Below, one piece after another: positions 17,605 through 55,549 of a stretch of 64,000 nucleotides of DNA (the stretch's first letter is position 1; each line of letters starts with the position of its first letter). Made by a program: the position numbers and the translations under genes. Below the pieces are notes generated by a model. It did no database searches and was not told where the DNA came from. It was given only the letters and a program-made list of their open reading frames with translations. This DNA is from Lytechinus pictus (lineage: Eukaryota): the NCBI RefSeq assembly GCF_037042905.1, contig NC_087245.1:26414001-26478000 (forward strand), given 5' to 3'.

Positions 17605-17893
17605 GTTAGATACCAATCCATACTCTAATGAGGGCATTGCAAGAAACTCTAATTGGGTCTTAATCTTGCAGTTAATTGCAAATTCGCAGTTGATGGCTGC
17701 TCTGTTTCTAGCCACAGAAAGTGTTTTTTGGCAAGATTACAAATGAATATCAAAATATTTTTGGTCAATGCCAAACAGTTGATTTTATTTCATAGCATGT
17801 TTTCCTTGTAAGTACTAGGAATGCAAGGAAAGAGGTGAGTGACTCTTTTCATTTGCTTAGATATTCATACATGTATTTGTTTTGTTCGTTCAG

Positions 17894-29110: not shown

Positions 29111-32100
29111 TAACAAAATAATAGAATACAGATTCTACAATCAACTCGTATCATAACAAGGTGCTTGAGACCAAGCTGATTATCTTCTTATTCTCATTAT
29201 AAACTTTAGACACATGTTTAAAATTGGTTCCAGAAGAATTTGCTTGTTATATTGAAATCTCGTTATACATCCCTGCCTATTATATCAGGAGTAGATTTGA
29301 TTCAGTCAGAACCAACAACTTGGCAGTGTTACTACAGAATAAAGGTTTGAAATATCAAATGTAATCAACTTGTTGTGTTTTATTCATTATGAACAATAAT
29401 ACTGTAGAATTACATCAAGGTGAGCTCTGTTAAAACATATAAGAGCATTTTATGTTGGTTTGAATTTATTCAGACATATTTCGTTGACACTATTTTTCTA
29501 TGTACATGAACATGGTCTTATTGCCTTTATTCCTTTTTTTTTCCTACACTGCTTAATGTTCTGCAAATGTTTGTGGTGTGAGCACATGATTTTTGCTGTA
29601 GATCAAATACATGTACATAGAAAAATAGACTGTCAACAAATACCGACATAATGATGAGAAGTTATTAATCTAAGGCATTTGCCGCAATAAACCTGATCAG
29701 TCTTCTCCAAATTCTGTGCAACTGAACTAAACAAAACTAGTAGATGTCTAATACATCAACAAGCAAATAGATTATCACATCCCCCAATGAACATGACAAT
29801 AAGGTTCAATGAAAATCAAACAGAATACATCTGTATTCATACATGTACATATCACTGGCAGTACATCACAAAAATATGTTATCTCTTGTATTATATACAT
29901 CTATTCTAATAATGTTACATGTACATTATAAACCTGTGAAACTCAACTACTGGTACTGGTAAACATGCAAATAGACCATCAATTCCACAACCAAAATCAT
30001 ATCCACTAAATATAACAAGGTTTTTCCATAAAATCAAGGTGAATACATCTGCACTCCTAACTTCAACATTACACATAGATGGCAAGCTCATGTATTGTAC
30101 TATCATTAATATCACAAAAATGTTTCGTTTGTAAAATATCTGTTCTATAACTTATACATGTATCTTCCATCTGTACAACTCAACTAAACAAAACTAGTAG
30201 ATGTAGGCCTATAATTATAACCAACGTGTAAATAGACTAGCAAATCCTAAGCTGATGTAATATCCAACAAATAAAACAAGTGTTTGATGGAAATCAAGGT
30301 GAATACATCTGCACCAAATAACTACGTTGTTGGATAAATACATACATGAAATGGCAAGGTCATATATTTTACTGGCAAACATTTGTTTTCTCTTGTAATA
30401 TGTATATCTGTTCTAATACGTTTCCATATAAAGCTATAAATCTAAGCAACTCAAGTAAACAAAACTATACAAAATCATCAATACAGGTATATAAAAAGAA
30501 TACATAATCATCTACTTGTACCCATTTTAAACTCTAATGCATATCCATACATGGAAAAAAAATGTGAAAAGAAAATGCTATAAAAAAATATGGTGACCAT
30601 GCATTAATTAATGCAGGAGATTCAAGGATCGAAATGAAAAGAATGCACTTGTTCTTTACTAATCCCCTACTGATTAACATTGCATATGTGGATGGCAAGT
30701 ATTTTTAAGCTACTAAACAGATAATTGTCCCTTTTACTTGTGGTAACAAGTGGTCTTAATTGTACATTATAAATCTGCACTGTAACCAAAGTAAACACCA
30801 ATATTCTAAAACGCCAATGCAGACTAGACCGCATTAACGGCTTTCTCAGCCCAAATTAGGTTTCGATAAAATTATATGACTGAATTACCCGTGAATATTA
30901 TATGTCATAGCATATAAAGTGAATGAAATTGAAGTGAACTTTGGCAAGTCATACAATATTTAAGTTGTTTAATTGGCAAACATTCACAAGATTTTTTCTG
31001 TTTGGAACATAAATGATACACTTTGATAGAGATGTTTTGCTACTGATTTAAGAGAGGAAGTTCATCATGGAAATTAGTGTTTCAAAAGGCAGAAAAACAG
31101 AAGGTGAATATGAATGACAACGGAAAGAAAATCCACCCCAAAAAAATGTAGTTATGAGAGTTAAACCATGGAGCTAAAAGGGAGATGATATCTAAATTAC
31201 GCTGATATATATGCATCTGTGAGACAAAGCAATTCTTTCAAGAAAAAAACCCAAATTATGGCATTTACATGCATAGGATATGGGAGAGCAGCTCATAAAT
31301 GATGTATCAAAATCCACATGTTGAATATTCATAACCTTGTTTTTCAGTAGATTTTCAAGCCTCATTCATATTTTTCTTAAACCAATCAAACTTCCCCTTT
31401 AAATAACTGTGGTGTAAACTATTGAGGTAAAACAGGCTAAAACAGCATTCCGTATATCTGATTCACATTTTATACAATCACGAAAGATGAGGTAGCCGTA
31501 TGCTTGTTTTTGTTGTAGTTAAGTAAAATAAGTACCGTAATGTAAAATACTTTGAATGGCAGACTTCGCGAGTTTTTAATAGATTGCACTGATTGTAAAT
31601 GTTATTTGGCAGCAACTGAAATATAAAACTAAAGTATACATACATATATAGTTTCAAAATAAATAACAGGTTTTAACACATGTATGTCTTCACATCATAC
31701 AAGTACTGAAAGGGCAAATACAGCTGCATACACGTACACCAATATCAATAACACATGTAGTCATGTGTTATAAATTGCATTTTTTTTTTTTTTTTTTAGC
31801 TTTTAAAGTTTAAACCATGTTTTATTATCTATTTTTAAATTACAGATATCACATTTTTTTTCATTAGAGGTTGGCTACCGGTATAAAATTATAATACACC
31901 AAATAGATTGAGGTGACATCCCATTCAATTTTGACACGTTCTATATCCAAATGAACAATATGACAGCCAGGGTTCTGAAAAAAAATTGATCTACACATGT
32001 AATCATGGTAAATGAATTCAATGAGAGTGATATCATATAAAATATTAATGTAATGAAATTTAGTATAGCTTTAACACAAGAGGCAAGGACCCCCTGTACA

Positions 32101-33210
32101 TTTGTATCCATATATTCTAGATACCTCTATTTGTGCAGCAAGCTTTCATGGCAGAGTAAAACTAAGGCACTTTTTTATATGAATTTAAAAATGTTTAGAG
32201 CATCATGTAGAGTGCAGCTCCAAAAACCTCCATGCTGCATGCAACAATAATTTCTCAAAGACTTGTGTAATGTATTGCAACATACATACAGCCTATACAG
32301 GTACCCTATACTATGCTCAAAACTTTATAAATTTGATATCACAAGGTGCTTAATAGTAATCTGCCTACATGTAGGTTCCTTTGAAATTGCATAGACCTGT
32401 GACATAATCTCAAAAATTGGAGACTAATACAATTTATATGAAAAATGCATACATGGAATATTAATGCCTTTCCAAATTTTTATACATGTACATAATGATA
32501 AGCTCCAGGGAGTAGTTTTTCTTACAGAATTTGATAAGTATTTGTGGCCATACGAGAAAAGCTCTCAACTAAGTTCCCTACAGTCCCTATGTAAAAATTT
32601 GCTACCCCAAAGACGTTATGTGTAGCAGTCATCTAAAAAATGTGGAGCAAAATGTGATGCAATACCAGGAAAACTTCCCTGAGCTATGTAATATATTTTT
32701 GTGTAAGATTCAATGTTAATTATATTAAAATTTAATGAAATATTATAACTATCAAACCGTATAACAAGCTGGGTGACGGTTACACTGATTGTTAATCACT
32801 GATTCTGTTTTATTTTCAAAATGAAATATAGAGCTATTTGCTGGGACCCTCTGTCATTTAATATTGATTATTATTGATATTTACTTATTCTATTACTATT
32901 TTTTTATTATTATCATGCACAATTATATTGATTTATAGCACTAATTATAAAGTTGTATATTTTATCTTGATCTTTCAATATTAATCTTTGAAATATTATA
33001 TTTTTAGACTTACCAAAACTAAAGCCCAGCTTTCACTATAAAATATCACTGAAATATTTATTGAGAAAATGATATGATTTATAGGTGGGTTCAAGATAGA
33101 AATAAGTTGGACTATCCAATTCAATAAGTTCTAATATTTAAAAAAAATATCCTCCCTCAGTGAAAGTGGTCCCCTCTCAATGTTAGATCCATCTGCCAAA
33201 ACATACAGTC

Positions 33211-33326
33211 TTAATACTTTCGAATGTCAGATATCTTCTCTCTGATGTAGCCATTGAACTTCCCAAGCTCTTTCTTGTATTGTTCGGGACTTAGCAGCTG
33301 CTTCTCTAAATGGTAGGCGAAAAAGT
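33211..33326 (-). CDS. BEND5-like protein exon 6 (end of BEN domain, stop)
   Basis: TTAG acceptor. DFFAYHLEKQLLSPEQYKKELGKFNGYIREKISDIRKY* resembles the last BEN helix (BEND5 VNKYICEKIMDINK as recalled). Confidence 0.82.
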
Positions 33327-33409
33327 CTAATACAGATATTGCAGTAAAGAAAAGACAAAAGAAAAGGGGGTTAGCAAAAACAAAGTTGTTATAGGAAAGA
33401 ATCTGCTGC

Positions 33410-34786
33410 ACAAAATTTTTTGACCATGCCACTCACAGAGTTTATACTTTATAAGTCTCGCGCATCTTTCTAGACCAAATTTACGACGCCTGGGTACGCG
33501 GTTCCAAAATCACGCAACATTTTGTAAGTGCATGTCAGAACAAAAATTGTTCCAAAACATGGTTTTGTGTACAAAGTCAATGCAAATTGAGTTTTCTCAT
33601 CTTATTCATAAAGATATGATTATTTTTACTTTAAGCAGCTGAAATAAATTGATTTTAGCATAATTATGCTTCAAAAAGGTTGTGCAATAAATCTGGTGAA
33701 AAGACAAAGAAAAACAAAAGGTTGAAAAACATAGAAATACATAAAACAATAAAATACATAAGAAATGATTTCCAAACTGAAGTTTTTTCTGTGGCTGGGG
33801 GGGGGGGTTGATTCAACCCCCCCTGAGATCTCGGCCGCCGATCGCGCGAGCGCCGCAAAAATTTGCTCGCTGGTAGTGTGCGATGTAATCTACAAGGCTG
33901 TATGGTAAAATTTTCCCAAATAATGAGATTTTATTTTATATGAATTAATTATGCTAATTTATGCATAAATCATACTTTTTGCTCTAATTCACTAAATAAA
34001 GCTCCTAGAATGCTAATTTTTGGTAAATATATTCTTTGTAGCATTCCTAACAATGGCAATTGAAAAAAACTTCGGTTTGGAAATCAATTTCTTATGTATT
34101 CTATTGTTTTATGAATTTCTTATGTATTTCTTTGTTTTTCAACCTTTTGTTTTTCTTTGTTTTTTTCACCAGATTTATTGCACAACCTTTTTGAAGCATA
34201 ATTATGCTAAAATCAATTGCTTTCAGCTGTTTAAAGTAAAAATAATCATGTCTTCATGAATAAGAGGAGAAAACTCAATTTGCATTGACTTTGTACACAA
34301 AATCACGTTTTGGAACAATTTTGGGTTTGACATGCACTTACAAAATGTCGCGTAATTTCGGAACCACGTACCCGGGCGTCGTAAATTTGGTCACAAAAGA
34401 TGCGCGAGACTTAAAAGTATCAACTCTGCGAGTGGCGCGGTCAAAAAATTTCGCGCGGCGGAATGATCGCAGAAAATGTGGAGGGGGGGGGGGGTTGATT
34501 CAACCCATCCGGCCATTTTAGGGTTAAGAATGCTACAATTAATATTTTACCAAAAATTAGCATTCTAGGAGCTTTATTTAGTGAATTAGAGCAAAAAGTA
34601 TGATTTATGCATAAAATAGCATAATTAATTCATATAAAATAAAATCTCATTATTTTGAAAAATTTTACCACACAGCCTTGTAGATTACATCGCACACGAG
34701 ATCTCAGGGGGAGGGGTGTGTCAACCCCCCCCCCCCACTCCCCCGGCCACAGAACAGCCAAAAAAGTCCGGCCTTGTTAGGGTTAA
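33410..34786. mobile_element. Two nested, oppositely oriented copies of a piggyBac-like MITE
   Basis: AGGG|TTAA ends at ~34527 and ~34786. 33415-33790 is the inverse of 34065-34450, and 33880-34050 is the inverse of 34524-34695. Confidence 0.65.
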
Positions 34787-34908
34787 TGAATTTGAAAAAT
34801 GCACATAAATTAGCATATTGAATGAGTTTCAAAATTCTGTTAAAGTTTTGAATTCCCTTGTGCAAAGAAAACAGAACTTTAAGTGCGAAGTGCGAAGAAG
34901 AACTTTAA

Positions 34909-35492
34909 AGGAGAATGAAACTCTTGGAGCAAGTTGGCTTTTGTGAAAGCAGAAAAATCAAAGAATAAGATCAACAAAAGTTTGAGTAAAATAGGACTAG
35001 CAATAGAAGAGTTATGAGCATTTGAATGTCGAGATCACTAATGCTATGGAGATCCTCCCATTGGCAATGCGACCAAGATCTATGATGTCACAGATGAACA
35101 ACTCTCCCCTTTTGGACACTGAAAATATACCCCAAAACATCTCTTTTTGCTCATTCTAATCATATGGCAAACGATTCATCAATGATATAATGTTGTGAAA
35201 CCTCTGTACTTGTCCTCTCATAATGAGAACACCTCACCTTGTGATAGACACTATAAAAGTGAGAATATAAGTGAAATAAGTACTAAAGTAATGAGGGAGT
35301 TGTACGTGTGTGACATCACAGATCTTGGTCGCATTGCCAATGGGAGGATCTACATGGCATTAGTGATCTCAATATTCAAATGCTCATAACTTTCTTTTTA
35401 TTCATTCAATCTTCCTCAAAATTTCAACAATATGTTTCTTTGATTTTTCTCTTTGATATGGATTCAGCTGGTTTCAAGGGTTTCATTCTCCT
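34909..35492. mobile_element. TTAA-flanked MITE (Kolobok-like), family B
   Basis: TTAA|AGGAGAATGAAAC...GTTTCATTCTCCT|TTAA with ~185-bp imperfect inverted arms. Confidence 0.8.
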
Positions 35493-35602
35493 TTAAGTGC
35501 GAAGAGGAAGCATTTTAAAATTGTGGACGAACGACAGATGCCATGGACTACGCTTATCTGAAAAATTAAACAAAAGGAAAGAGAAAATTTAAATTTTGTT
35601 AC

Positions 35603-35816
35603 CTTTAACTGCCTGCAGCTTTCCTGAATCAAGTGCAGGCCGTACTGCATGGTCCTTGTATCTGTTACACGTCTGTCCAGTTACAGAACTTTCTCTTAAA
35701 AGAGCAGTTCCAAAGACTGCAACTGCAAGGTTTTTAACCATTAGGCTATTTTTAACCTGCCCAGTTATAGCCTCCATTTTGTCTGCAGGTATGATTATTC
35801 CTGCTCCTAAGGACAC
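35603..35816 (-). CDS. BEND5-like protein exon 5 (BEN domain core)
   Basis: VSLGAGIIIPADKMEAITGQVKNSLMVKNLAVAVFGTALLRESSVTGQTCNRYKDHAVRPALDSGKLQAVK shows the BEN signature (L..vFG...L...S.TG.....rp.Ld..kl). CTAG acceptor, GTAACA donor. Confidence 0.9.
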
Positions 35817-37170
35817 CTAGAAATGAGAATGAACATACAGCAGGAGTTACCTTGATTGCAAACAAATAATAAATTTAATACCTATCATTGTTACTTGATT
35901 TTAAATTCATTATAAGCCTATCCCACTTTTAATTATTTTTTACATGAAAGATTGCTCCAACCCTCATATCTGAATATGCCATGTGTAGTTAGGTCATTAT
36001 TATCAAAGACATGATAACTTTTGTAATAAAAGCTTGCATGTTACACTTTACACATGAGCTTGACGCCAACATAGGCAGTCAGTAGACAGGTCCCCAAAAA
36101 GTAGCTTCTTTCATCCACGTGATATTCATGACTAACAAGATTTTTAGTATAACTTGCCCATTGCTGCTCTGAATATTTATCAAATTTCATGTTTCTGGTA
36201 TCTTTGTAAAGAGGAAGAATTATTCTTTCAGATGATTTGTTTGAATTTATTCAAAAAAATGTAATGTAAGTGAAATTTCAATCTAAAACATACCGGTAGT
36301 CAAAAATAATTATTTTCATCAAGTTGTTGTTTTAACACTTCATTTCTGTTCAAGCCCAAATGATATTTAAACGATGACAAAGCTGATGATCTAAGCTTTA
36401 ATATGATATATGATTCAAAAGAAGATTTGGTTTAATTGGGTCAAAATCACACTTTTCATAGGCCAAACATGTACAGAAGCTTGAAAACAAGAATACTTCA
36501 CTCTTATGGCCAAAGATACCATGTACCCGCTCAAATTCCAAAGGTTTCAATGCTGGGGCCTATCCAAGGTCACACTCTCAATGTGGTAAATGTAATCTCC
36601 TTAAATTACATGCACCAATTGTTTTGAAACCTTATTCAGCCAATCAGAACTCTGGATTTCCTGCTACTCTCAAATGTCAGAAATCTTGTCTTGTATCTTG
36701 ATGGAAAATTGTGATCTTGACCCAATTAAAAGGTCCCACATATCGAGAGTGATATTGTGAGAAAGTACAGAATCTCGGCTTTGTGATGATATAAATATCA
36801 TTGAGGCTCAAAATAAAAAGTTTTGCACCATTTGCAAAAGAAAACAGGGAGAGAAAATTCAATTTTGAGACATCTTTTCAGACCTAAAATTCACTTATCA
36901 AAATAGTTTAGACAAAATAAATTACCGATATAAAAGAGTAACATCTACACTTTCTAATGGTACAATACTATCTAATTTTTCTTGGTGATAAAGTGGTTAA
37001 ATTCTTAGAAAGAAAATCTCGCAATTCATGAGATTTTGTAGGGAGGACTCAGCCACGAGAGGATCTGGCCTATTTGCTCATCACAGGAAACCGCAGCCTG
37101 ACTGTAGGTAAAAGCCACATTTCACCAAGACATTAAGTCGCTCATTACTACAGTGTACATTAAAACTTAC

Positions 37171-37355
37171 TTGACCATCATCAGGCACATATTTATCTTC
37201 GAGAACTGTTGGTGTTGGTAGTTGTTCGGCTGGTGGGGGGGTCTGGATTGGTGTGGGTCTAGGTTGCGGAGCCTTGAAAAGGGGCGTAGTGTGTTGTACA
37301 GAAGTGCTGGAGGGGGGCTGTGTGCGTGCCTTCACAGTTGGTATCAAGGGTCCCA
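37171..37355 (-). CDS. BEND5-like protein exon 4 (Pro/Thr linker)
   Basis: Ends PTPTVLEDKYVPDDGQ (BEND5 PAPVMDKYILDNGK as recalled) followed by a GTAAGT donor. Phase 1-0. Confidence 0.8.
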
Positions 37356-38130
37356 CTTAAAATAAATGACAAAGAATATTCACAGAAATTAAAGTTATAA
37401 TACTAGCAAAATTAGGAAACAATATTTTTACACACTTCAAATTTATTGACCCGATATTTTCTATCTTTCCGTGTATCAGTACAAATGTGCTACAAAAACT
37501 AAAACATAAAGATGAAAAGAGCAGAGAAGAAAAAAATTGAATTAAAAGAGCTTTAATACTTTTGTACACAGGAGAGCTAAAATACAGAGTATTAAGCTGA
37601 CCCCCCCCCCCCAGAAAATCAAAACCCCCAAAAGCTGAACTCTCACATAGTCAATTTGGATCATTCCTTAAACTAAATCATAACATGAAAAAATATGTTT
37701 AGACATTCAGGATGTGACTTCGACATCTGAAAATTAAGGGGATGAGGAAAAGGGAATTTTGTTTAATTTTCTGTTCATTTCGGATTTACTTTCAAAATTT
37801 TACTAAAAATTGAGCAATGAAACATCTACATTGTATATGTGGTTTGACTCACTTTGACACAATAAAAAAATTAAAACGTTGAGATTATCATAGTTGCTCT
37901 AATCTGAATACAAAAATGGTAATAAATTCAATAAAAACATGAAGGGGTAACAATATATTGACCTTTCCTCAGTTTAAACTGCTGGGTTGCAATAATTGGC
38001 TGCGCTTAAAACACATTTGACTTATGAAGTACTAGTAATAAAAACTTGCAAACAATTGCGGAAATATGATTGACCTAAATTAGAGTTAGAGACATTTCAA
38101 CATTCATACTTTTTTTTAAAACCTGAATAC

Positions 38131-38413
38131 CTTTGTTTAGAATTTCTTCTTGAAGCCTCCGATTCAGGGTCCTCAGTTCCTCCAATTCTTGGGCGATAGT
38201 TCTCTTTTCTTTTTCTAGTTCTGCAACTTTTTTTTTCAAGGACATGCAGTTACCACAGTTGGAAGCACTGGCAGACACACCAGTGTTTGGGGTTGTTTCT
38301 TTCTTGGGTGCATCGGTACAAGGGAAAAATGTCTTGCGTTTCACCATCTTTTCTTGCAGGATACTGTCCAGGGCTGTTTTTTTGGCTGTAGAAATGTGGG
38401 CGTTGGTGGCTTT
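38131..38413 (-). CDS. BEND5-like protein exon 3 (CxxC and coiled coil)
   Basis: KATNAHISTAKKTALDSILQEKM...CGNCMSLKKKVAELEKEKRTIAQELEELRTLNRRLQEEILNK (BEND5 MKELRDLNRRLQDVLL as recalled). AG/GT boundaries, phase 0-1. Confidence 0.82.
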
Positions 38414-39212
38414 CTACATGTACAGGTGTAGATGAATTAAAAAAAAAAGAAAAATGTCAAATCAGGTACTATTGAATAATTTCTGCATTCAACCTTCAAC
38501 TATTCTATATGACATCGCAACCATTATAAACCAAAAACATTTGTTAAATGAAAATTTTGCAAATTAGTGTCGGCCTTTGTGGAGGCATTGAACTCACAAA
38601 ACAGTGATAATATGCACATTCTAGTCGGTATGCAAATGAGGGGACTGCTGACATCACTCACTCACTATTTCTTTTGTATTTCATTATACATGTATGAAAT
38701 ATTTATAATTTTCTTGTCATTGGCATGTGAAACAAAGCTTTATTCCTTCCTGAAAATTGGGAATCACCATTGTTTTAACAATGTGTGGTTCAATCATGAG
38801 GGTTTTTATTGTCAAATCTGTAAAAATTGAAATATTGTATAATTATTTCAAACAATAATAAACAAAGTAGAAAGTGAGGTACATCATTGACTCTCTCATT
38901 TGCGTATATCTTAGAATTGTGCAAATGGCCGTTTTATGAAAAACAAGAGAAACTTTCTCATTTTACATCAGATTTTGATGAAATTTTCAGCATTATTCGA
39001 TTTTTCTTTGTTGATTCAAAGTATAAACTATTTTCTGGGGTGGACTGAACATTTCTCCAAAGCTTGCATCCAGTTGAGAATTGTAAGTTAACTTTGGTAA
39101 AAACTGAGATGGGTGTAGTGTGAATTCACATTATTAGAATTCAAATTGTTGTTGTGACAAACATACTTCATCAACATATCTGCAAGGATATTCTATTTTC
39201 TGCATTCCTTAC

Positions 39213-39364
39213 CTTGGCAACTTTTTCTTCAGCGAACTTTTGTTTCAGGGATAGTGGCACAGACTCCTCCTCATCACTTGCCTCCTCCACACTTGACTCA
39301 ACAAGCTTTCGGACCCTGATTCTTGGCCCATTCTGTATTCGTTCCTCCAGCTTTTCCTTTGTCT
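39213..39364 (-). CDS. BEND5-like protein exon 2 (absent from ORF track)
   Basis: CTCAG acceptor, GTAAGG donor. Encodes ETKEKLEERIQNGPRIRVRKLVESSVEEASDEEESVPLSLKQKFAEEKVAK. Phase 1-0. Confidence 0.8.
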
Positions 39365-40006
39365 CTGAGGATAGATTTATTAAAGGAAGAAAATAATATT
39401 CAGATTGCGATGAGATGCAGTTTGACAGGCCAGGGGCGGTATTCTGAAAGCGCTAAATTAACTGCAATATTTGGTGAGCTGAATTCTCAATTAGAGTAGG
39501 CTTAAATACATGTACATGTAGATCTCTAAGTCTTGTGCAACAGATTTAAATTATACTCCTGAGTCCTGACCCTTATCATCAGATCATACTAATAAAAAAA
39601 AAGTTTTGAACACAAACATGCTTCAGCTCTGACAATTAAATTAGCAGGGACAAATGTGGCCAAGACTGGAGTCTCACATTTTAAAACAAATCTAGTTTTG
39701 TCCGCAGCCAGCTTAACTTTCTACGGCATCTGGTGTTTTATTACAAAACTCATTCCAGGTTACATGAGCTGTGCCTGTACTGTGATATGGTGCATTTCAA
39801 GAGAGCCATATTGCCAGTGCCGCTACATCCAAAAGTCATGAAAGACACCACAATATGTTGGCCAATTGTGTTTATTCTTTGTTCTAGTCAGACAAGTGCG
39901 CACATCATGTCTCTCAAGCTGAAAAGTGGATCATATGATACAACTATTTTCGTGATCAATGCTGCATTTAATTTGGAGTGCGCAAATTTTTTTTGAGATT
40001 TTGCTG

Positions 40007-40938
40007 CTACACGGAGTCTAGACCAAAAGCTTCGGTCTGTTATGTTGGTTGTTCAGCTGAACTCCGTTGGCTTCACTCACCAAATACAGAGACCGAAGTT
40101 CTAGCGCGATCTGTACAGGGGACTCAATGGCCATATGTTTATGTGTATTTATTAAGTTCGGATAAAACAGGGCAGTGAAGTTGCGCGACAGCCGAGGTTA
40201 GTCACTGTTTTTTTATCCTTTTAACTTGATTTTCCCCTTTTTTGGCAATTAATGCCAAGAGGGAATATTAAATTAATTTGCATTTCGGTCGCGTTAATTT
40301 TCAAAAGTTTGATTCATTAAAGACAAAAATTGAAGAGCCCCGACAGGGGGATTTTGCATTGTAAGTCCCGTATTGGTGGCTGCACAATAGCGAGTCGTCT
40401 GTGTATGAGGAGAAATTTAAAAAATAAAAAAATGTTAGAAAACTCCTCGAAACATACGGCTGCCAGCTGTCTACACGGAGTCATAAAATGTTAGACCAAA
40501 AGCTTCGGTCTCTGTTATGTTGGTTGTTCAGCTGAACTCCGTTGGCTTCACTCACCAAATACAGAGACCGAAGTTCTAGCGCGATCTGTACAGGGGACTC
40601 AATGGCCATATGTTTATGTACTTAAGATCGGATAAAACGGGGAAGTGAATTTGCGCGACAGCCGAGGTAAGTCACTGTTTTTGTTTCTTTTAACTTGATT
40701 TTTCTCAGTTTTTTGGCAATTGATGCCAAGAGGGAATATTAATTTGCATTTTGGTCGCGTGAATTTTCAAAATTTTTACTCATTAAAGACAAAAATTGAA
40801 GAGCCCCGACGGGGGGATTTTGCATTGCAAGTCCCCTAATGGTGGCTGCACGCTAGCGAGCCGTCTGTGTATGAGGAGAAATTAAAAAAAAATAAAATGT
40901 TAAAAAACTCCTCGAAACAGACGGCTGCCAGCTGTCTA
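40007..40938. repeat. Tandem duplication of a ~470-bp unit in intron 1 of the BEND5-like gene
   Basis: AGACCAAAAGCTTCGGTC at 40020 and 40493. Both copies end GGCTGCCAGCTGTCTA (40473 and 40938). Confidence 0.9.
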
Positions 40939-41187
40939 TAAAATGTAGGCCCCTAACTGTTATACTGACTTTTTTTTTTACTGTACTACTACTATGTAGA
41001 TCAATGATCTAGAGTCTATTTCTACAATGATCTATATATCATAATCATATAGTATAGGCCCTATAATATATGGCAAGTTCCCCCAACGGCCCAAGCATGC
41101 CAAGTCCATGAAGAAGTCTGCGCAGTCTTAAAATTAAAAGAAAAAGTTAAAACAAAAAGTCTTAATTTTGTTGTGAGTTTGGCCTAC

Positions 41188-41392
41188 CTTCCAGCAGTAG
41201 AATCTGAGCCCTGTAGTAGTCAAATTCTTTGCCCTCCTCGTTGTCTAAATCCATGGGTTCGACCCCATCTTTGTTCTTGCTACTAACTCCTACATGTAGG
41301 GTCCTCTTCAGTTTCTTTGTCGATGTTTTCTGTGAGGTGTCGCCGCGCTCGACGACCTTCTTCGCCGGCTGCCTCCAAAGCACATAATACAC
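41188..41392 (-). pseudogene. BEND5-like exon 1, 3' part (separated from its start by a foldback insertion)
   Basis: VYYVLWRQPAKK...EFDYYRAQILLLE followed by a GTAGGC donor. It joins in frame to 47767-47877 when 41402-47766 and one TSD copy are removed. Confidence 0.82.
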
Positions 41393-43599
41393 CTTATCTT
41401 CGAATCAGGGACAACTCGGACCACGGGACATCTCGGACCGTGGGCCGAGTTGTCCCACCCGTTTCGTGATTTTTTTCCCACAAACTTGCGTCTATTTTTC
41501 CGTCAATTCGAAATTTCTTGTAATGATTTTCTAGAGATCTGGTCTGTTGGTAATGTTCTTCACTTTCTATTACTTTTTTTTCGCTGAAGTTAAAAAAAAA
41601 AGTGTAATTTTAGGCGTTTTTCGACAGCTTGCGATTCCCATAGGCGCGCGTGTATTAACTGTGTTGGTGCTCGGCTCGGCCCCGCTCAACAACTGACTTG
41701 ATTTTGTGATCATTTCTCCTCAAGTTACCACTTTTATCGCAGAAGATGGACTTTCTTGTATTCCATTCACTCTAATTATTCATCACAAGGATAAAATTCG
41801 GTGTATATGCACGATTCTGTTAAAGTTTTTCACCTTTTCTCTCTGGTCCGAGTGGTCGTAAGAAGCGAACAACCGATGAACGGTCCGCTGCTCTTCATCG
41901 CAATTCTACGTAGCTCGGCCGCCGAAACTGGCGGGGTGGGATTCAGCCCGAATCCCCAATGGAAGTGGGCGTGCACAGTCGAAGAGCTGAGCTTGACTGA
42001 GTGAGAGAGAGTGAGTGAACTGGAGCTAGGCTCTGCTTTTTTTTGGTAAATATATATATGTATTTTTTTATTTTGTCTATATTGATTTTCCCTGGTGTAG
42101 AGCTTTAATATTTTAATAATTTAATATGCTTCAATTTCTTTGACTGAGTGTGACTGTGGTGTGGATGTTTGAGTCGCACAAAAAATACTTTTACGTGGGT
42201 GGGGGCTCGGGGCGATTTCACTCCTGCCCCCAAAATGTGAAAAAATATCTGCGGTGTAGATGTGTGGGCCTGCTAGGCTGAGGGTATAGCCATCAATAAA
42301 AAATGTTTTATTTGGGGGCTTAATTTTGAATTAAACTATTTTTTACAGGATTTAAAAAATAAAATGATGTAATTCATTGTGCCCCTTTCCATTCCTTGTT
42401 TTTCCCTGATTTACTTTCTTTAATTTTATTTCTTGGTCTTAAGGGTGGATGTCAGGCTGCCGGGGTGGAATTCAGCCGGAATTGCCAATGGAAGTGGACA
42501 TACTTGCACAGTAATTAGCCTGGAGACTCGAGCCTTGCCCTGCAGTTGTGAATATTTTTTCAATCAAGTTTTAAATACTCAGTTGGCTGGTTCAATAAGG
42601 GCCACTCAGTCTTATTCCCATTTGAAATATAATCAGGGGCGGATCCAAAATTTCCCTACATGGCCGGGGGGGGGAATTTTGTATAGGAATTTTTTGACAA
42701 AAGGTCTTCACTACCAAACTTGAATCACAGTAATTTTTTCCCCAGGAAAAATTTGACAAGCAAAGAAAAAAGGGTTTTCAGTTGCCTTTTGAGTACCTCT
42801 AAACGGGGGGGGGGGGGGGGGGGGGGGGGCGGATGTGCCCCCCCCCCTGATTCGCTACTGGAACTAATGTCCATTTCATTCAGTTTTTCTTTTTTACAGG
42901 AGGAAAGAATAGAGTAAGAAGTTTGGTGTTTTGTATTTTTACCAATTATTGTTTATTCAATATGAAATGTATTTAATTTAGTATAATTTCCAAAAAGCAT
43001 CACTTAATTAACTTATTTAAATTTAAAATGTAAACATGAATAAAAATTGTGAACTTTGAATGAATATATTCTGTAAATTGTAATATTTTTAAATCATATT
43101 TTATCTCCATTCTTATCATTGTCTCCTTTTCTCTTTATGTTCATCACTCTCATTTCAATTAAATATATATTCTGTTACTGGTATAAAAAAAAAGACAACA
43201 ATACTAAACACTGATACATTGATCAATAGAAAAAAACAAAGAAAAAGAGGGGAAATACAAAGAAATGACAGGTACATGGAGGGGGGGGGGGTAACAACAA
43301 ATCATGCTTGTCTGGGTTTTAAAAACAGGAGAAGGGTGGTCAATACAATATTGCAATTAGCAGATTATGAAGAGGGTTTTGTTTTTATCAAATAATTTTT
43401 GCAGTTCCTTATGAAACTTTGGAGTGATGTTGTTTTGTTTTTCTTTAATAGAATATCACCCATTCTAGAAAACTGAACTCTGTATCTAACACTAAGTTGC
43501 CCTAGTGTTGTTTTCCAATCTACATTTTCTAGTTCCTGGTATCATAATTATGGATGTAATCATTTAAGGTGTACCAGTTAGAAAAGTACTATTCATACA

Positions 43600-43992
43600 A
43601 TGATACAATACTATGTTCATTGACCCTAAATGATATTTGACCTTGATCATGTGACATTTCAATGATACTTGATTACCCCTATGTCCAAGTTTTATGAACC
43701 AGATCCATACACTTTCAAAGTTATGATGGTTATTCAACAAATACCCCCACATGGCCAAAGTTCATTGACCTTGAATGACCTTTGACCTTGGTCATGCGAC
43801 CTGAAACTCGCTGCAGGATATTCAGTGATACTTGATTAATCTTATGTCCAAGTTTTATGAACTATGTCCAAATACTTTCTAAGTTATGCTGTCATTTCAG
43901 AAACTTAACCTTCGGTTAAGATTTGATGTTGACGCTGCCGTCGGAAAAGCGGCGCCTATAGTCTCACTCTGCTATCCAGGTGAGACAAAAAT
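43600..43992. mobile_element. Helentron-associated (HINE/DINE-like) repeat fragment
   Basis: Internal TGACCTTTGACC repeats and a terminal hairpin GTCTCAC...GTGAGAC next to an A-run. Confidence 0.5.
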
Positions 43993-44483
43993 CATGATAC
44001 AGTGATGGAAAAAAAAGTAATAGAATAAATTTAATCAAAAAGAAAACCACATGCTATGTAAAAGAAATGAAATTCAAAATCATAAATTAGTCATTTTTAT
44101 TGAATGAAGAATTTAATTTATTGATAATTGGAAAAAAGATGAACCCTATTTTCTTTCAATGGAACCCAAATAGTTGTAGGGCCTAGTATGATTTTTCATC
44201 ACATAACATGATTCAGAACAAAAATCAAGCCATATGTGACGTTTTGGGTTTAATATCGTGTGGGACGGAATCTACATGACGGCATTCGTTGGACGGATTT
44301 TTCTTCTTAAATCTATCTATCTCTGCTCATCCTCATATCTTTCATTACCTTCATCCCTCTCATCAGAGGGATGGAGGTAATTAGGCGGATGGGAGGAGAT
44401 TGACATGAGAGGAGGGATGAAGATGATGGGAGGATCGAGGGGTGGAGATAATGAGATGGTGGGAGGAATGGAGATGATGGGAG

Positions 44484-45947
44484 CAACCGCGTAGCCAGGA
44501 TTTCATTTTGGAGGGGGCGGTAATCGCACGCGAAGCGTGCCAACACTTACAGAGCGCGCGAAGCGCGCTCCCTAGGGGGTGGGTGCAGGGAGGGGGAGTT
44601 TCCCCCTCCCGCGCGAAGCGCGAAGCTTTTGGTGTTTCATAAATTAAAATGAAAAGGAGCCGTCTCTCTTGTCTCTAGTACCTATATCACCTCCAGTTCA
44701 GTTGACAATATTGTGATTTTGAACCTTTTTTTCATGAACCTTGTTTTCAAAAGTGATTGTGAGCGAACGCATAAAAGGGGAATACAATGGAGGAAATTAA
44801 AATAATAACCCCGCGCGAAGCGCGGAAGCTAAAGCGTTTTTTTCAATTTTTTTCTGCCATGAAAAAGGTCCCGATAAAAGGGTATTTTCAAAGATATATT
44901 GAATACTTCCCTTGGAAAGATCATATTTGATTACAAACGATTTAGCGACAGTGCATAACTCGCAAAATAGAGGAGAAGAAGTGTATATGCAGGGAGGAAG
45001 ATATTCCTCCCCGCGCAGAGCAATGAAACTCTGAAGTTTCAAAGGGCGGACGTTTCATCAAATTCAGATATCTCTAATACCCCATCGGGTCTAATTCGAT
45101 TGATTTTCTAAGATTATTGAACTTCATTACAAGGAAAATAGTGCGCAAAAAGTTGAAACTTCTGTGATTCATTGAAATTATATAAAAAAGGATGCCTAAT
45201 TTATTTGACTTATACTGAAGCGCTTCATTTTGAATTATAAAGAACCCTAAGTGTCATTCAAAATTTCAAACTGAGTGCGCAAAACAGGACAAGAGATGAA
45301 TGTGCAGGGAAACGACATGAAGTTTAATAGAATTTGATAATAAATATTGTACTTTTTTATCTAATACGACACGAATTTTATACCTTCCTTTTTTTAAATT
45401 AGGAACCTGTTTGCCCCAAAATTATGGTTGATTAGTAATGAGCTGAAAAGCAGGAGAAGTTGACTTTATGGAGGTGACGGCAGAAATTGATATAAAGATT
45501 TTACCCGCCCATGGCCGACCCGTCCAGAAGTGGCGCAATCAATTAAAAAAAAAAGATAACTTCATATACTTCGGCCTAACCTTACTCTAATTATATGCCC
45601 TAATGCATAAATTTGAACTTTAACTGGCAAGAAACGGGCAAGAAACACATATAGCTGAGGTGGAAAAACAGGGTTCGAGAAAGGATGGGGGAAACAATGG
45701 AGAACTTCAATATTATCATTTAACCGCGCGCCGCGCGGAAGCAAAATTCATATATAAATTTAGAGCAAGAGAGAAGGAGTTTCTCTTTTGAGAAAAAAAT
45801 AAAGAATAAAAAGAAAAAAAAACACAAAGCTACCTTTCTTCCCTTTCCTCCCTTCCCTTTTCCTTTTCTCCCCTCTTTTTTCCCTTCTTTTTTTTTCTTT
45901 TTGGGGACGTTTTGGGGGGCGACCGCCCCCCCCTGGCTACGCGCCTG
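44484..45947. mobile_element. Non-autonomous hAT element nested in the foldback element
   Basis: TIR CAACCGCGTAGCCAGG / CCTGGCTACGCGCCTG. Perfect 8-bp TSD GATGGGAG (44476-44483 and 45948-45955). Internal CGCGCGAAGCGCG motifs. Confidence 0.85.
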
Positions 45948-47766
45948 GATGGGAGAGAATGAGGCGAATGGGAAGAGCATCCCTTTCAAGAAAATAAATC
46001 AGGGAGGAACAAGGAATGGAAATGAATTGAATTATTTTTAATCCTTTAAAATAAAAATAATAATTAAAAATTAGGCCCAGAAACAGAAAATTGATTGAAA
46101 AAACCCCCCATATTATTCACAACTACAGGGCCAGGCTAGTCTCCCAGCTCAGGCTGTGCACATATGTCCACTTCCACCATTGGTGTTTCCGGCTGAATTC
46201 CACCCCCAAAACAGTCGTGTGGCTTACTCAAGTATAAGCCACACCACTTGAGTAAGCCACACCACAAAAAGGCACAGAACTAAACTTAAGTTCTACACCA
46301 GGGAAAATGAATTCCAAAAAAAAGAGGGAGCAATTGAAGCGGGCAAGCTTGTAATGGGGGCGCCTTGTTTCCCTTACTCAAGTAACAGAAAATTGATTGA
46401 AAATAAAAACATAATATTCATAACAGCAGGACCAGGCTATATAGTCGAAGGCTGTGCACGTATGTCAACTTCCATTGGGGTTTCCGGCTGAATTCCACCC
46501 CGGCAGCCTGACGTCCACCCTTAAGACCAAAAAATGAAAATAAAGAAAGTATATCAGGAAAAAACAAGGAATGGAAAGGGGCACAATGAATTAAATCATT
46601 CTATTTTAAATCCTGTAAAACTTAAAAATAATTAATATGAATTGGGGGTGGGGGGTTGAGTATCAAAATTTTTTTAGGGGGTTTGAACGCCTGTAACCAC
46701 CCCCTGCGTACGCCACTAAATTGAAGCATATTATTGCAACTTAAAACTCAGCTCTCTACACCAGGGAAACTCAATATGAAAAATAAAAAGGAAATTTATA
46801 TACAAAATAAATAGGCCTAAAAATAATTAGTTTAATTAAAAATTAAGCCCCCAAATGAAATATTTTTTATTGATGGCTATACCCTCAGCCTGGCATGCCC
46901 ACACATCTACACCGCAAATATTTTTTCACATTTTGGGGGCAGGAGTGAAATTGCCCCGAGCCCCCACCCACGTAAAAGTATTTTTTTGTGCGACTCAAAC
47001 ATCCACACCACAGTCGCACTCAGTCAAAGAAATTGAAGCATATTAAAATATTACAATCTTAAAGCTCTACACCAGGGAAAATCAATATAGACAAAATAAA
47101 CAAATACAAATATATATTAACAAAAAAAAAGCAGAGCCTATAGGTACGTCCCGACCCCTTTCTTCAAGCTGTAGTTCACTCTCTCTCACTCAGTCAAGCT
47201 CAGCTCTTTGACTGTGCACGCCCACTTCCATTGGGGATTCGGGCTGAATCCTACCGGTACCCCGCCAGTTTCGGCGGCAGAGCTACGTAGAATTGCGATG
47301 AAGAGCAGCGGACCGTTCACCAGAGAGAAAAGGTGAAAAACTTTAACAGAATCGTGCATATACACCGAATTTTATCCTTGTGATGAATAAATAGAGTGAA
47401 TGGAATACAAGAAAGTCCATCTTCTGCGATAAAAGTGGTAACTTGAGGAGAAATGATCACAAAATCAAGTCAGTTGTTGAGCGGGGCCGAGCCGAGCACC
47501 AACACAGTTAATACACGCGCGCCTATGGGAATCGCAAGCTGTCGAAAAACGCCTAAAATTACACCTTTTTTTTTTTACATCAGCGAAAAAAAGTAATAGA
47601 AAGTGAAGAACATTACCAACAACAGACCAGATCTCTAGAAAATCATTACAAGAAATTTCGAATTGACGGAAAAATAGACGCAAGTTTGTGGAAAAAAAAT
47701 CACGAAACGGGTGGGACAACTCGGCCCACGGTCCGAGATGTCCCGTGGTCCGAGTTGTCCCGACCC

Positions 47767-47877
47767 CTTATCTTCGTGGTGGGTCGATTGATCAAAGTTT
47801 TTTATCTCATTTACTCTGACGATCGCCGTCGACCCACACTCCCGAAATTTCACATATGCGAAATTGTGAACCACCAT
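47767..47877 (-). pseudogene. BEND5-like exon 1, 5' part with start codon
   Basis: ATG at 47877. MVVHNFAYVKFRECGSTAIVRVNEIKNFDQSTHHEDK resembles the BEND5 N-terminus MYAFVRFLEDNVCYALPVSCVRDF...NQKVY as recalled. Confidence 0.8.
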
Positions 47878-48550
47878 ATTGATCTCCGGTCGAGTACCGT
47901 ATATTCCTAATAAACGTCTTCTCATATAATTCACGAAGAAATAGAGATGAAATATCAGCTATTGAGATTGTCCGTCCATGCACTGCAGATGAGAAAATCG
48001 CACTGAACGTGGAAAACGTATTTGGTCGAATCGGCGCTAAAACAATGGCTTCCGATTGGCTATTGGTCGGTCTACCAATTTAGCGACCGAAGAATATGAT
48101 GCTTAATTGAGATCTTTATTTTCATAATATTTAATAAAAAATATATAAATATATAATCCTTGGATTAAAAAATAATAATAATAAGAAACAGATCTATTTC
48201 TTTAAAAAAACAATGAAAATATATTTCGTGATTTTGAACTAACCGAGTCGAGTCAAGTTGCGCGCGCACGTAGGATACGACGGTTGAAATTCCGGATTTC
48301 CCCTATCTTCCTTCTTGTTTGTATTTTGGCGGGCGGCTATCGAATTCTGCTGAATTCGCACAAATTTGCGCGGGTACGGTACCGCCGACCAGCCGGGAAT
48401 ACTTGACTGGTACGGTGCTAACGTGACGTTCGTACGATGAGGACATCTTGAATCGGCGTCGATCTACTAGATTTTATGACATTTTTGTATTTTTGCAACC
48501 ATAAATTTGTGTTCTAAATAGTGATAGAATAAGTACGATATAGTAGAGTC
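47878..48550. promoter_or_regulatory. Putative bidirectional promoter between the BEND5-like and transposase genes
   Basis: 673 bp between divergent ATGs. CpG-rich flanks around an AT-rich core. Cluster of three CCAAT/ATTGG motifs at 48055-48079. Confidence 0.55.
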
Positions 48551-49016
48551 ATGGATCGGCAGCGTCGAAAAAGAAAGAATTACCTCGAACCACAGAGCGA
48601 TGCACAACTACCCGCCGCGACGCGATGGAGGATGAACAGGAGACGAGCGCGATTAGCCCCCGCTGCCCTGGCAGCGGCTGACGAAGTGAACGCTCCCCCC
48701 GATGATGATAGCACTGATGATATGGAGTTTGAAGGAAATCATCCACATGCCTTTGTACCTCGTCCATTGCAATATGATGTTAGATTTGATAGTGATCAAA
48801 ATGCAGCCGATGATGAGTCAGAAATGGCAACCGGAGAAGATGATGAGGTCGAGGCCCGGCCCAACAATTGTGATATTTCAACTGCAGGTGGTGTCATGTT
48901 AACTAGTTCAGCTGCTGCAATAGATCGAAGGGCAAGGCAAGCCAGACTAACTACATGTAGACTGACACCTAACTCGGTCTCAGACTCAGAGTTGATTGGA
49001 AGTGAAACTTTTGAAG
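48551..49016 (+). CDS. CACTA/CMC transposase exon 1 (basic N-terminus then acidic region)
   Basis: MDRQRRKRKNYLEPQSDAQLPAATRWR...; GTTAGT donor in phase 1, compatible with the downstream exons. An earlier donor near 48887 is also possible. Confidence 0.65.
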
Positions 49017-49044
49017 GTTAGTCATGGACAGTAGATAATGACTA

Positions 49045-49594
49045 GGGGTGGTATTCTGAGATCCATTTCATTTTTATCTCAGATAAAATAAAATATTTTA
49101 TCTCCGTTAAAATCAGTGAGATAAAATACCCTTAAAATCTCTCAATTGGTATTCTGAGAACAATTTTATCTTCATTTTATCTCTGTAAGACACACCTATT
49201 TTTAATAAATATCCAATTAGAAACGCGCTTTTAAAGTTTTATAGCTCTCATATGATCTCTCAACCAATTGGAAATCCATTCCGCTTGGGGTGTGGCAAAG
49301 GAGTGAGATTGCGTCATTCAGTACGCTTGCACTATCACTTGCCCGTCTTTACAGAGATTAGTCAAGAAAAGTCTTATGAAATGCTTCCTGATTGTACAGG
49401 AATAACTTCAAGGTGTTGTTCTCAAGGAATATATAATTATTCTTAGTTTTCATGCCAACATTTGGAGTTAATTCACCTAGGAATAATATTTTCAATTTTA
49501 TCTGAGAGATGAAATGTCATCTCAGAATACCAATTTCATTTTAAGAGATAAAATAAAATATTTTAAAGATAAAATGACCTCAGAATACCGCCCC
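49045..49594. mobile_element. PIF/Harbinger-like MITE in transposase intron 1
   Basis: TIR GGGGTGGTATTCTGAG / CTCAGAATACCGCCCC with internal AGATAAAA repeats. Confidence 0.65.
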
Positions 49595-50941
49595 TGGTCT
49601 ATTGATGGAATTATGGTGGTGACTGATTGAGTGACTGGTAATCTAGATAATTGATCTAGCCCTGAAAACAAACATTACTGAGAATGAAAAGCATGAAAAG
49701 CTGTGATCTAGTACAAGGCAAACTCTGATTTTGTAATTTTGCATCTTGAAGATGCTTAAATTGAACAAATGTAGACTATGTGATGAAATTAAGATGATGT
49801 TTCCGGTCACTTTATATTCACTTTTTGAATCAATTGATTCTTGGATGCAATTTTTTCTGGGCTTCATTTTCCATTCTTCATTGCATTAGCAAATGCCTGT
49901 AACTTAATTTTGGCTCATTTTCATAACAAAGATGTGGAGAAAACATAGGAGTGGATGCCATTCTTTATATTCATATTATGATCAAGTTCATAGAACTCTA
50001 GCCTGACTAAGGCAAACAATTTAATGAAATAGTTTACAATTTAAACAATTTGAAAACAGACTTGTCTTTTTTATGCAAAACTGGAAAGTGCCCTTGCATG
50101 TCTGTGCTTTAAGTCATTTTGCGTGCAGCTTTAGATGCGATGTTCCAAATGAGCTTTTCTTCATCATTTTCAAAGTATTTTGCATACAGTGAAAAATTAA
50201 TTGCTAAGGACTATTTTGTTACAAGTGTGCATTAACTTGGGTGTACAGACAATGCGAAGACTTGGGCACTCCTACCATACCTTACTTAGTTCATGCGACA
50301 CAATATGCGCGCTCAAATATCTTGATCAGACTAGAAAACAACAATCCATCACCAAGTGTAACAAAAACTTGGGGAAAATCTTTTTTATGATTTCATAAAA
50401 TTGATTCATCAAGAATTCACTTCCTTGAGACAGAAAATAAAAATGTACATTTTATAGGTGCTCGGACTATAGTATTGTAGGCCCACTGTTCAAATTTTAT
50501 GATCACGTAATCGACCCAAGCTTGTGTATTCACCAAATATGTTTTGTTCATTTTGTTGCACTTTTGTCTATAAATGTCCCTCAGAATATTTTACATGTAA
50601 TAGCGGGAATAAGTATATTTAATTATTTCACTTTATAGCTCCATCATATAAGAACAATGCTTTTTAGTTTTTACATTACAATTTTTGGACTATTTTTAGA
50701 GAATCACCTTGTCATATCATAATTTTTGTTTTTAAATGACCAGCTAGTCACCCTGATTTCTACCACGATGATGGCCAAACTCCTATCAAAACTGACAATG
50801 AACTGAGACTTTGTTTTTATCTGAGTGAATCTATGTTTGAAGTTTTGAACCTTAAGTCTTGGTATCTTTTTATTCAAATGAGGCCTGTCATTCAGTGTGC
50901 ATAGTATGTTTACGTGCAGTGTCTCTCTTTTGTTATTCCAG

Positions 50942-51010
50942 AAAGTGATGCAAGTGATGATGTACCAGTATCTGCAAATGACAACAGCAGCTTAGTTTCA
51001 ATTGCATCAG
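50942..51010 (+). CDS. Transposase putative mini-exon 2
   Basis: TTCCAG acceptor, GTGTGA donor, 69 nt, phase 1-1. Encodes ESDASDDVPVSANDNSSLVSIAS. Confidence 0.55.
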
Positions 51011-51776
51011 GTGTGACATATTTAATATTTTCATATTTGAATGAAGAGTGCACAGAGGGCATTGAAAGTTTTTTTTTAATGAGACAATAACAGAACTGTC
51101 ATGAATCAATATTGGTGAGTCAGGAAAGAAAACCCTGATTTAATAAATCGATGCGGGGGGGGGGGAGTATATAAAACTTACTGACTGCAAAAGACAACGG
51201 CAGCCTTGTTTCGATAGCATCAGGTTTGACATATTTATATACTATTTTCATATTTGAATGATTGATAGTACACAGAGACTGAGGGCAGTGAATGGACAAG
51301 TCACAGAGTTTTTTGGATGAGACAATAACAGAACTGTCGTGAATTGATAATGTAGTTGGCGAGTAACAAAAGAAAACCCTGATGTGAAAAAAAATGATGC
51401 GGGGGAAATATTTGTGTACAACTGATAAATATGTAGAAAACTTAATGGACAATACAGATTTTCATATTTTGCCCTTTATTTCTCATATTTCTAATTGTCT
51501 CTTGCTGACCTTGACTTCTTTGGTGTAAAAATTATCTTCTCCCTTGACATTTTTTTGTATGGTTCAGATTCTCTTAAAAGAAGATGAGTAAGACAGATTT
51601 TCGATGCTAAAGGATAGGAACCCCCTTTTCATTCATGAACTTCCATACACATTTTAATCCAAAATTTTGATCCAGATTTGAAATAGATCCAAGATATAGA
51701 TTTTGGAAAATGTCCACTTTTCCTTGGAATTGCCCACATGCTTATTCAGTTCATGTTTTTCTTCTTCCATGAATAG

Positions 51777-51833
51777 GTGCATCATGCGATGACATATCTG
51801 CAAATAGCTCCAGCCTTGGTTCAATAGCATCAG
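51777..51833 (+). CDS. Transposase putative mini-exon 3 (duplicate of exon 2)
   Basis: ATAG acceptor, GTTTGA donor, 57 nt, phase 1-1. Encodes GASCDDISANSSSLGSIAS. Confidence 0.4.
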
Positions 51834-52453
51834 GTTTGACATATTTTTATTTTGTTATCTATATAATTGAATGAGAAGAGTGTAGGGCATTGAATTTCCA
51901 AGGTTACAATCCAAGATGAGACAATGCAAGAACTTACAATTTTGGCTTGTTAGGGTTTTAAAAAATTGAATACAAGTATATATTTCATTGATAAGTGCAG
52001 ACAAAATATTTGTTTGCCACAGAGCATGTTAAAATTTAGCTGTTTAATCTGGGGGAAAAAAGTTAAAAGGTGCCTGTCTACCTCAATATGTCGCATATTA
52101 TACACAATGTTGCTAGAATAGATAGGATTTGGGTTCTGATTTTAAGGTCTTTGGGACAAGAACATAAACACAACACCACATAACCAAAATTCGAACTTGG
52201 ATGTCAGAGGAGTTTATTGACAGCAAACACATATCATCTTAGTCTTTTTTCTAACATTTAGGCTTCATGATCCAAGTTCAGTATGTTGACAAGTTTTTTA
52301 ATGCATTGGTGCTCGATAAAAAAAGGAGTGTACTGGCTACTTAAGGCAAATAAATTAAATTCAAATTAAAGTCCCATTCAATTATTAATGATTAGGTTTC
52401 ACATCCTTTGAAACTTTCAAACATCGAAAATATGCATTTTTATTTTTGTTTAG

Positions 52454-54945: not shown

Positions 54946-54963
54946 CCTGACTTATGTCTTTAA

Positions 54964-55542: not shown

Positions 55543-55549
55543 TTAAGGC

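Follow-up and report, generated by a model that had tools for sequence, protein, structure and literature searches.

The present analysis concerns a gene encoding a BEN-domain protein, a relative of vertebrate BEND5, that lies within a CMC/EnSpm DNA transposon of the sea urchin Lytechinus pictus. The window, i.e., the whole stretch of DNA that was analyzed, comprises 64,000 nucleotides of contig NC_087245.1 (positions 26,414,001 to 26,478,000); positions given below without a contig are those of the window. The encoded protein combines an N-terminal beta barrel, a coiled coil and a C-terminal BEN domain. There is little doubt, in our view, that a widespread lineage of animal CMC/EnSpm elements has this BEN gene as its resident second gene, placed divergently from the transposase gene. 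In the window, the BEN gene consists of the following segments:

47767..47877, minus strand: exon 1, 5′ part, with the ATG at 47877 and the first strands of the putative Tudor-like domain
41188..41392, minus strand: exon 1, 3′ part, which stops after the last strand of this putative domain, with a phase 1 GT donor
39213..39364, minus strand: exon 2 (152 nt), post-barrel helix and basic segment, acidic linker
38131..38413, minus strand: exon 3 (283 nt), coiled coil
37171..37355, minus strand: exon 4 (185 nt), Pro/Thr linker and pre-BEN segment
35603..35816, minus strand: exon 5 (214 nt; 71 codons, a length shared with BEND5), opening part of the BEN domain
33211..33326, minus strand: exon 6 (116 nt), last BEN helices and stop

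Together, these seven segments amount to 1,266 nt, and their spliced translation is an open frame of 421 aa followed by a stop, with cumulative exon phases of 1,0,1,0,1 and GT-AG boundaries at all five true introns. Recomputing the sum and the phases confirmed the six-exon, 421-aa gene of the original prediction, apart from its statement that every boundary is GT-AG: the join 47767|41392, whose donor is GG, is no intron. The Pfam check proposed for the spliced protein was positive: the exon at 35604-35816 matches the BEN family over the cut-off (E 5.6e-6), and PF10523 scored 27.2 bits vs a cut-off of 23.2. Among the predicted database models of Lytechinus pictus, one called “BEN domain-containing protein 5-like” (P0005) shows this exon chain preceded by 16 additional residues, as it starts at an in-frame ATG located 16 codons upstream of 47877. 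Another predicted model (P0007) is that of the interrupted copy; it splices past the insertion described below, and most of the N-terminal domain is gone.

The element that carries this gene includes the following features:

27487..60423: complete CMC/EnSpm DNA transposon of the TRC type; its 32,937 nt include nested insertions, and a 2-bp GG duplication flanks it
27487..27514, plus strand: left terminal inverted repeat, starting with CCCAGG, 27 of 28 nt matching the right end
60396..60423, minus strand: right terminal inverted repeat, partner of the left 28-nt repeat
27638..29109: left subterminal tandem array with periods of 22/44/88 nt, candidate binding sites of the BEN protein
59438..60075: right subterminal tandem array with a 29-nt period; its 8-mer CCAATAGA is common to the left array and to family B (see below)
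47878..48550: spacer between the divergent start codons, short and CpG-richer, probable bidirectional promoter
48551..49021, plus strand: probable first coding exon of the transposase, basic at its start and then acidic, with no Pfam match
52396..54945, plus strand: main open frame of the CMC/EnSpm transposase, 849 aa from stop to stop
41393..47766: nested non-autonomous foldback element, 6,374 nt including one copy of a 10-nt duplication, with inverted arms of about 1.1 kb

In Pfam, the transposase frame matches Transposase_21 just under the cut-off (E 3.6e-6; 26.8 bits vs 28.6) and, weakly, DUF4218. Its residues D296, D469 and E633, which we take to be the catalytic triad, are invariant in all six aligned copies. 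The 16-mer of the element end has 13 exact copies in the urchin genome (G000) and none with the reversed control, and 2-bp duplications (GG, TA, AA, GA) flank all four copies whose two ends were seen. The element thus combines a Transposase_21-type DDE transposase, short terminal inverted repeats starting with CCC, a 2-bp duplication and subterminal arrays, i.e., the features of CMC/EnSpm elements of the animal TRC type; CCC termini and 2-bp duplications are described as marks of animal CACTA-like TRC elements (PMC1636069). Another small repeat apparently hosts the whole element, its halves lying at 27420-27486 and 60424-60900. Small inverted-repeat elements are found within the transposon (33449-34697, 34951-35450, 38610-39054, 54960-55546 and 58563-58824), those of the BEN introns being also present in the second copy described hereafter.

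In the window copy only, exon 1 is split by the 6,374-nt insertion, with a 10-nt target duplication; judging by its ends, the inserted foldback element may be Mutator-like. A second copy of the transposon (G000:C21:13925302-13951278; 25,977 nt, 2-bp TA duplication) shares 94.6-98.8% identity with the window element across the main blocks. Its exon 1 is unbroken (316 nt), the insertion is absent, its six exons are clean, and its BEN protein differs from that of the window at 2 of 421 residues. The BEN gene of the window is damaged by the nested insertion, and that of the C21 copy is whole.

The pairing of the BEN gene with the transposase recurs well beyond these two copies. Examination of the flanks upstream of 12 transposase loci of G000 revealed a BEN exon head-to-head with the transposase at seven of them. 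Three families, A, B and C, were distinguished, whose transposases have 100, 60 and 54% identity, respectively, to that of the window. In families B (C13, C14) and C (C19, C2), the BEN gene has the same six exons and the same phases (1,0,1,0,1), the 214-nt length of exon 5 being common to the three families. It is open in family B at C13 (403 aa); in family C, exon 4 contains a single stop in the C19 copy but not in the C2 copy. The BEN proteins share 42% and 34% identity between families, their divergence being in step with that of the transposases, and pN (proportion of nonsynonymous differences) is lower than pS (proportion of synonymous differences) between families (0.32 vs 0.82 and 0.44 vs 0.76, with pS saturated). 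Furthermore, a gene model of the wasp Trichogramma fuses a barrel, a BEN domain and a transposase of the same type in one chain (E 2e-48).

Outside G000, the search covered 82 contigs encoding such a transposase, i.e., the best 80 of 143 confirmed metagenome matches and two genome contigs. First-pass profiles gave three barrel and seven BEN matches at E <=0.1, and the reversed controls were never better than E 2.1. After iteration, 18 of 19 barrel or BEN matches were located upstream of the transposase and on the opposite strand; a head-to-head piece was found in 15 of the 35 contigs having at least 2 kb upstream. As the scores of iterated profiles are circular for the seeds, the evidence here consists of position, strand, first-pass scores and Pfam, which matches BEN in five of eight frames of these contigs (two at or over the cut-off). 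Candidate phase 1 donors, recognized by their motif only, occur at the matching place after the barrel in 6/6 frames and after the BEN exon in 4/6. Scans of viral and metagenome contigs with single proteins, and an alignment scan of viral contigs, retrieved nothing.

Some of these results weigh against a resident gene: no BEN exon was found in the 10-20 kb upstream of the transposase at four of the 12 loci of G000, and it lies on the same strand at one; 20 of the 35 outside contigs with at least 2 kb upstream gave no barrel or BEN match; and some of the 82 contigs are near duplicates of each other. We favor a resident gene over the capture of a BEND5 ancestor by this element, since three families of G000, the wasp model and many unrelated contigs all show the pairing.

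Several other observations were made during these searches. At G000:C10:30067644 (plus strand), a distant BEN exon lies 12 kb upstream of a CMC transposase, on the same strand. Locus L040 (G000:C11:24491858-24496169) is a decayed relative with five tandem BEN exons at a spacing of about 395 nt. The BEN match at G000:C12:27624519-27624743 is of a different BEN type and lies inside an open frame of 2,496 aa. Two prokaryote genome bins carry animal-type CMC transposases (L127 and L128), probably through contamination.

In the AlphaFold model of the BEN protein, a long loop splits the N-terminal barrel, which has four strands; the model also shows two long helices and the BEN domain. With Foldseek, its C-terminal part matches Insv, Bsg25A, NACC1, BEND6 and BANP, solved BEN domains occupying ranks 1-11 and the best matches being those of Insv and Bsg25A (4ix7, 4x0g; E 1e-4, template modeling score 0.75 by target). 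By sequence and by fold, the protein belongs to the BEN-domain proteins. The isolated barrel resembles the hybrid Tudor domains of ARID4B (Z score 6.8), ARID4A (6.2) and KDM4C (5.6), the next match being at 3.0. We propose “Tudor-like” as a lead for this domain because these Z scores are middling: even the best match aligns 53 residues with a root-mean-square deviation of 2.5, which counts against the assignment, and Foldseek gave a best E-value of 0.23 for the N-terminal domain (predicted local distance difference test score of the model, 72). A search of solved structures by sequence gave nothing better than E 0.3, and the BEND5 N-terminus searched in the Atlas, with BEN clusters skipped, retrieved unnamed clusters only.

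A search of 1.84 billion representatives placed frog BEND5 at rank 15 (E 2.6e-18) among the best 150 of 230 matches. The barrel was found in 52 of the 149 representatives tested, and the barrel together with the BEN domain in 46; the 20 named relatives come from ticks, a barnacle, a firefly, echinoderms, sharks and bony fish, and the top Atlas clusters carry the names BEND5-like, BEND6 and BEND5. The original prediction held that the similarity to BEND5 extends beyond the BEN domain. For the N-terminal domain, this was confirmed by profile comparison: when the three vertebrate BEND5 rows were left out of the barrel profile, it scored 50.6-62.6 bits in all four vertebrate proteins holding a barrel (best shuffle, 6.9). 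Pairwise, the N-terminal similarity is weak (E 0.009), and a good alignment with BEND5 was obtained only at residues 224-420 (29%, E 9e-24). The signal of the coiled coil is modest, with 1.7-21.7 bits in six of seven proteins and -2.4 in one, and shuffles reaching 3.4.

The comparison of introns with BEND5, proposed with the original prediction, suggests a correspondence for four of the five junctions. Breaks occur at four sites in chimeric or read-through vertebrate models: one follows the last barrel strand, one follows the coiled coil, one precedes the BEN hairpin and one lies within the BEN domain. Junctions 1, 4 and 5 of the urchin gene appear to lie at matching sites and junction 3 within three residues. 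The residue following junctions 1, 3 and 5 always has a G-starting codon, as phase 1 predicts, and the stretch between the last two junctions is 71 codons long in frog, fish and urchin. Two points qualify this comparison: the BEND5 sites were deduced from protein variants rather than from vertebrate DNA, and junction 2 was not placed. Overall, the N-terminal domain, the BEN domain and apparently the four intron sites point to homology with BEND5. The colinearity with BEND5 is therefore right, but it is a trait of the whole family, because tick and carp-family members are closer to the window protein (35% identity) than frog BEND5 is (29%); this lack of special closeness counts against one part of the initial interpretation, whose homology and colinearity hold. 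The vertebrate proteins (frog P0022, platyfish P0075, catshark P0030) share with the urchin gene the order barrel, coiled coil, BEN and the 71-codon BEN exon, whereas BEND5 has only 29% identity to it, is not its nearest relative and is nested in a carboxypeptidase gene. BEND5 is not known to have an adjoining transposase. In PMC9233729, BEND5 is described as a coiled coil and a BEN domain only. The catshark protein named BEND5 (P0030 / P0162), with 40% identity to frog BEND5, is sister to the bony-vertebrate clade and may be an intermediate or a separate domestication. A shark (Mustelus) model, P0015, groups with echinoderm rows and family C, which suggests horizontal transfer or contamination.

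As for the function of the BEN protein, we propose by analogy that it does the job of maize TnpA, which binds subterminal repeats, is required with TnpD for transposition and regulates the promoter of the element (PMC2613891, PMC1636069). The BEN domain would bind the subterminal repeat arrays, the coiled coil would oligomerize the protein and so bundle the two ends of the element, and the protein would load the transposase onto the CCC ends and set the activity of the shared promoter, while the N-terminal barrel would read DNA or chromatin. Binding of this type to the element ends is slightly favored. Families A and B frequently contain the 8-mer CCAATAGA; family C has ACCAGTA in its place. 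The consensus site of Drosophila Insv and Bsg25A, the best C-terminal fold matches, is not enriched in the window; the Insv consensus was rejected as a binding site, with 27 matches vs 25.0 expected in the window; four fall within the left array, and the right array contains none. A precedent is provided by the Myb-like protein of Harbinger elements, which binds both the ends and the transposase and has been domesticated several times in jawed vertebrates (NAIF1, MSANTD1-4; PMC9392472).

The resident protein might instead be an anti-silencing or self-regulating chromatin factor, whose barrel would read chromatin and whose BEN domain would bind the promoter, with no direct synapsis of the ends. 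We consider this rather improbable. In its favor are the resemblance of the barrel to the hybrid Tudor domains of ARID4A/B and KDM4, the additional ability of TnpA to reactivate a methylated promoter (PMC1636069) and the increased recruitment of Tet1 by mouse Bend5 (PMC9233729). However, families A, B and C all have large subterminal arrays of short motifs, which is the anatomy predicted by end binding of the TnpA type, and the two roles are not mutually exclusive.

Concerning the direction of descent, BEND5 is probably a transposon gene kept by vertebrates, because the pairing is found in many animal transposons. One BEN gene from a related element of another family would have landed in a carboxypeptidase intron of an early jawed vertebrate and lost its transposase, giving rise to BEND5. 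Indeed, bird and fish models join exons of BEND5 to those of a cytosolic carboxypeptidase gene, presumably AGBL4, as expected of a nested gene. The matching 60-kb intron of the urchin carboxypeptidase gene, examined as the one outgroup, contained no barrel or BEN match; this gene lies at G000:C11:12.33-12.42 Mb, with no BEN match, and the window is on C1. No intact BEN copy free of transposase was found in G000, where the best BEN matches of three vertebrate queries are the transposon-borne genes of families B and C. In the trees, which exclude seven near-duplicate proteins, BEND5 forms one compact, short-branched clade limited, in our sample, to jawed vertebrates (supports 99/94 and 98/90), and the window gene falls outside it (99/94). 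Among the rows nearest to BEND5 are carp-family genes, represented by three models that share 99-100% identity.

Several results argue against this direction. The phylogeny proposed with the original prediction recovered the BEND5 clade, and it does not show BEND5 nested among transposon-borne members, the deep branches being unsupported. Grouping BEND5 with the families of the window was not rejected by the approximately unbiased test (p-AU 0.15), and forcing BEND5 beside distant transposon BENs beat the free quick tree in likelihood (p-AU 0.71; two long rows also excluded). The quick BEN-only tree in which BEND5 was nested was set aside since the constrained tree had the better likelihood; one later profile comparison was discarded as circular, its target being inside the profile. 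The link of BEND5 to multi-copy fish genes is weak (97/77, then 86/48), these genes could be tandem copies, and the genomic context is known for four of the 44 rows of the main tree, the fish sisters not being among them.

Alternatively, an ancestral CMC element could have taken, once, a BEN-solo gene from an early-animal host, BEND5 then being inherited vertically and often lost in invertebrates. We judge this unlikely. The six-exon spliced structure suits a host gene, flies have host BEN-solo genes (PMC4281564), the C-terminal model is closest to the Insv and Bsg25A structures, and the absence of nesting in the trees is also in keeping with such a capture. However, the transposon-borne members are far more diverse than BEND5, the BEND5 clade of our sample contains jawed vertebrates only, the urchin carboxypeptidase intron is empty, stray BEN exons of G000 (C5, C8, C13) have no barrel exon detected by profile in the flanks examined, and the barrel exon at C16 has stops. 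Finally, a recent Pack-CACTA-type capture of the urchin's own BEND5 by one element, which the BEND5-like names of the database models could suggest, is highly improbable and already contradicted by the divergence of the BEN gene in step with the transposase across three families, by the recurrence of the layout outside echinoderms and by the absence of a host donor copy among our G000 matches. Of the two alternatives raised initially, a resident accessory gene later domesticated is therefore favored over the capture of a BEND5 ancestor by the element. Taken as a whole, a resident accessory gene with a TnpA-like role, later domesticated as BEND5, appears to us a fairly likely explanation and the best one. 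A broader extension, tentative and open to serious doubt, would make BEN-solo proteins the TnpA equivalents of animal CMC/EnSpm elements, and BEND5, perhaps BEND6 and the fly Insv/Elba insulator proteins repeated domestications.

Outside the CMC element, the window contains an open frame of 367 aa encoding a Tc1/mariner transposase (62598-63701, minus strand; DDE_3, E 3.7e-19, and HTH_Tnp_Tc3_2), a frame resembling, by eye, the C-terminal end of a non-LTR (long terminal repeat) retrotransposon protein (1-516, minus strand) and probable exons of a host gene (10356-18862, plus strand), including a Gln/Gly-rich frame of 333 aa (17861-18862).

The window element can be compared with several known systems. 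Like the animal CACTA-like TRC/EnSpm element SmTRC1, sea-urchin relatives of which have been noted (PMC1636069), it has CCC termini, a 2-bp duplication and a Transposase_21-type transposase. However, SmTRC1-type elements are described as producing splice variants of one unit (PMC1636069), whereas the window element has a separate, divergent six-exon BEN gene. Maize En/Spm, with TnpD and TnpA, resembles it by its two proteins, its subterminal arrays and a second protein with a DNA-binding domain; however, the BEN gene is separate, whereas TnpA arises by splicing from the transposase unit (PMC2613891, PMC1636069). Plant elements have CACTA ends and 3-bp duplications (PMC8978399) instead of CCC ends and 2-bp duplications. 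No sequence link was found between the BEN gene and TnpA, the BEN protein having no such Pfam match. The Myb-like gene of Harbinger belongs to another superfamily and encodes another DNA-binding fold, and its binding was tested (PMC9392472), whereas that of the BEN protein is inferred. The literature searched, which did not extend to Repbase reports and supplements, included no paper that assigns BEN genes to CMC/EnSpm elements or traces BEND5 back to them.

These results would identify the second protein of animal EnSpm/CMC elements; the second protein of the EnSpm/CMC superfamily is given as “of unknown function” in reviews (PMC8978399). A direct test system is offered by the two young, almost identical elements, whose transposase frames are open and which provide an intact BEN gene together with candidate binding arrays. 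It is also probable that many genes annotated as “BEND5-like” in fish, ticks and echinoderms belong to transposons. Besides its study as a tumour suppressor, BEND5 has a role at chromatin boundaries under investigation. It is as a chromatin-boundary factor that it is treated in PMC9233729, and the list of transposon-derived DNA-binding domains in a Codebook passage does not include BEN. If our proposal is true, BEND5 joins the transposon-derived genes of vertebrates. Under the broader, more doubtful extension given above, its marking of boundaries and recruitment of Tet1 would be the former end-bundling and anti-silencing activities of a transposon protein, exerted partly through an unannotated Tudor-like domain.

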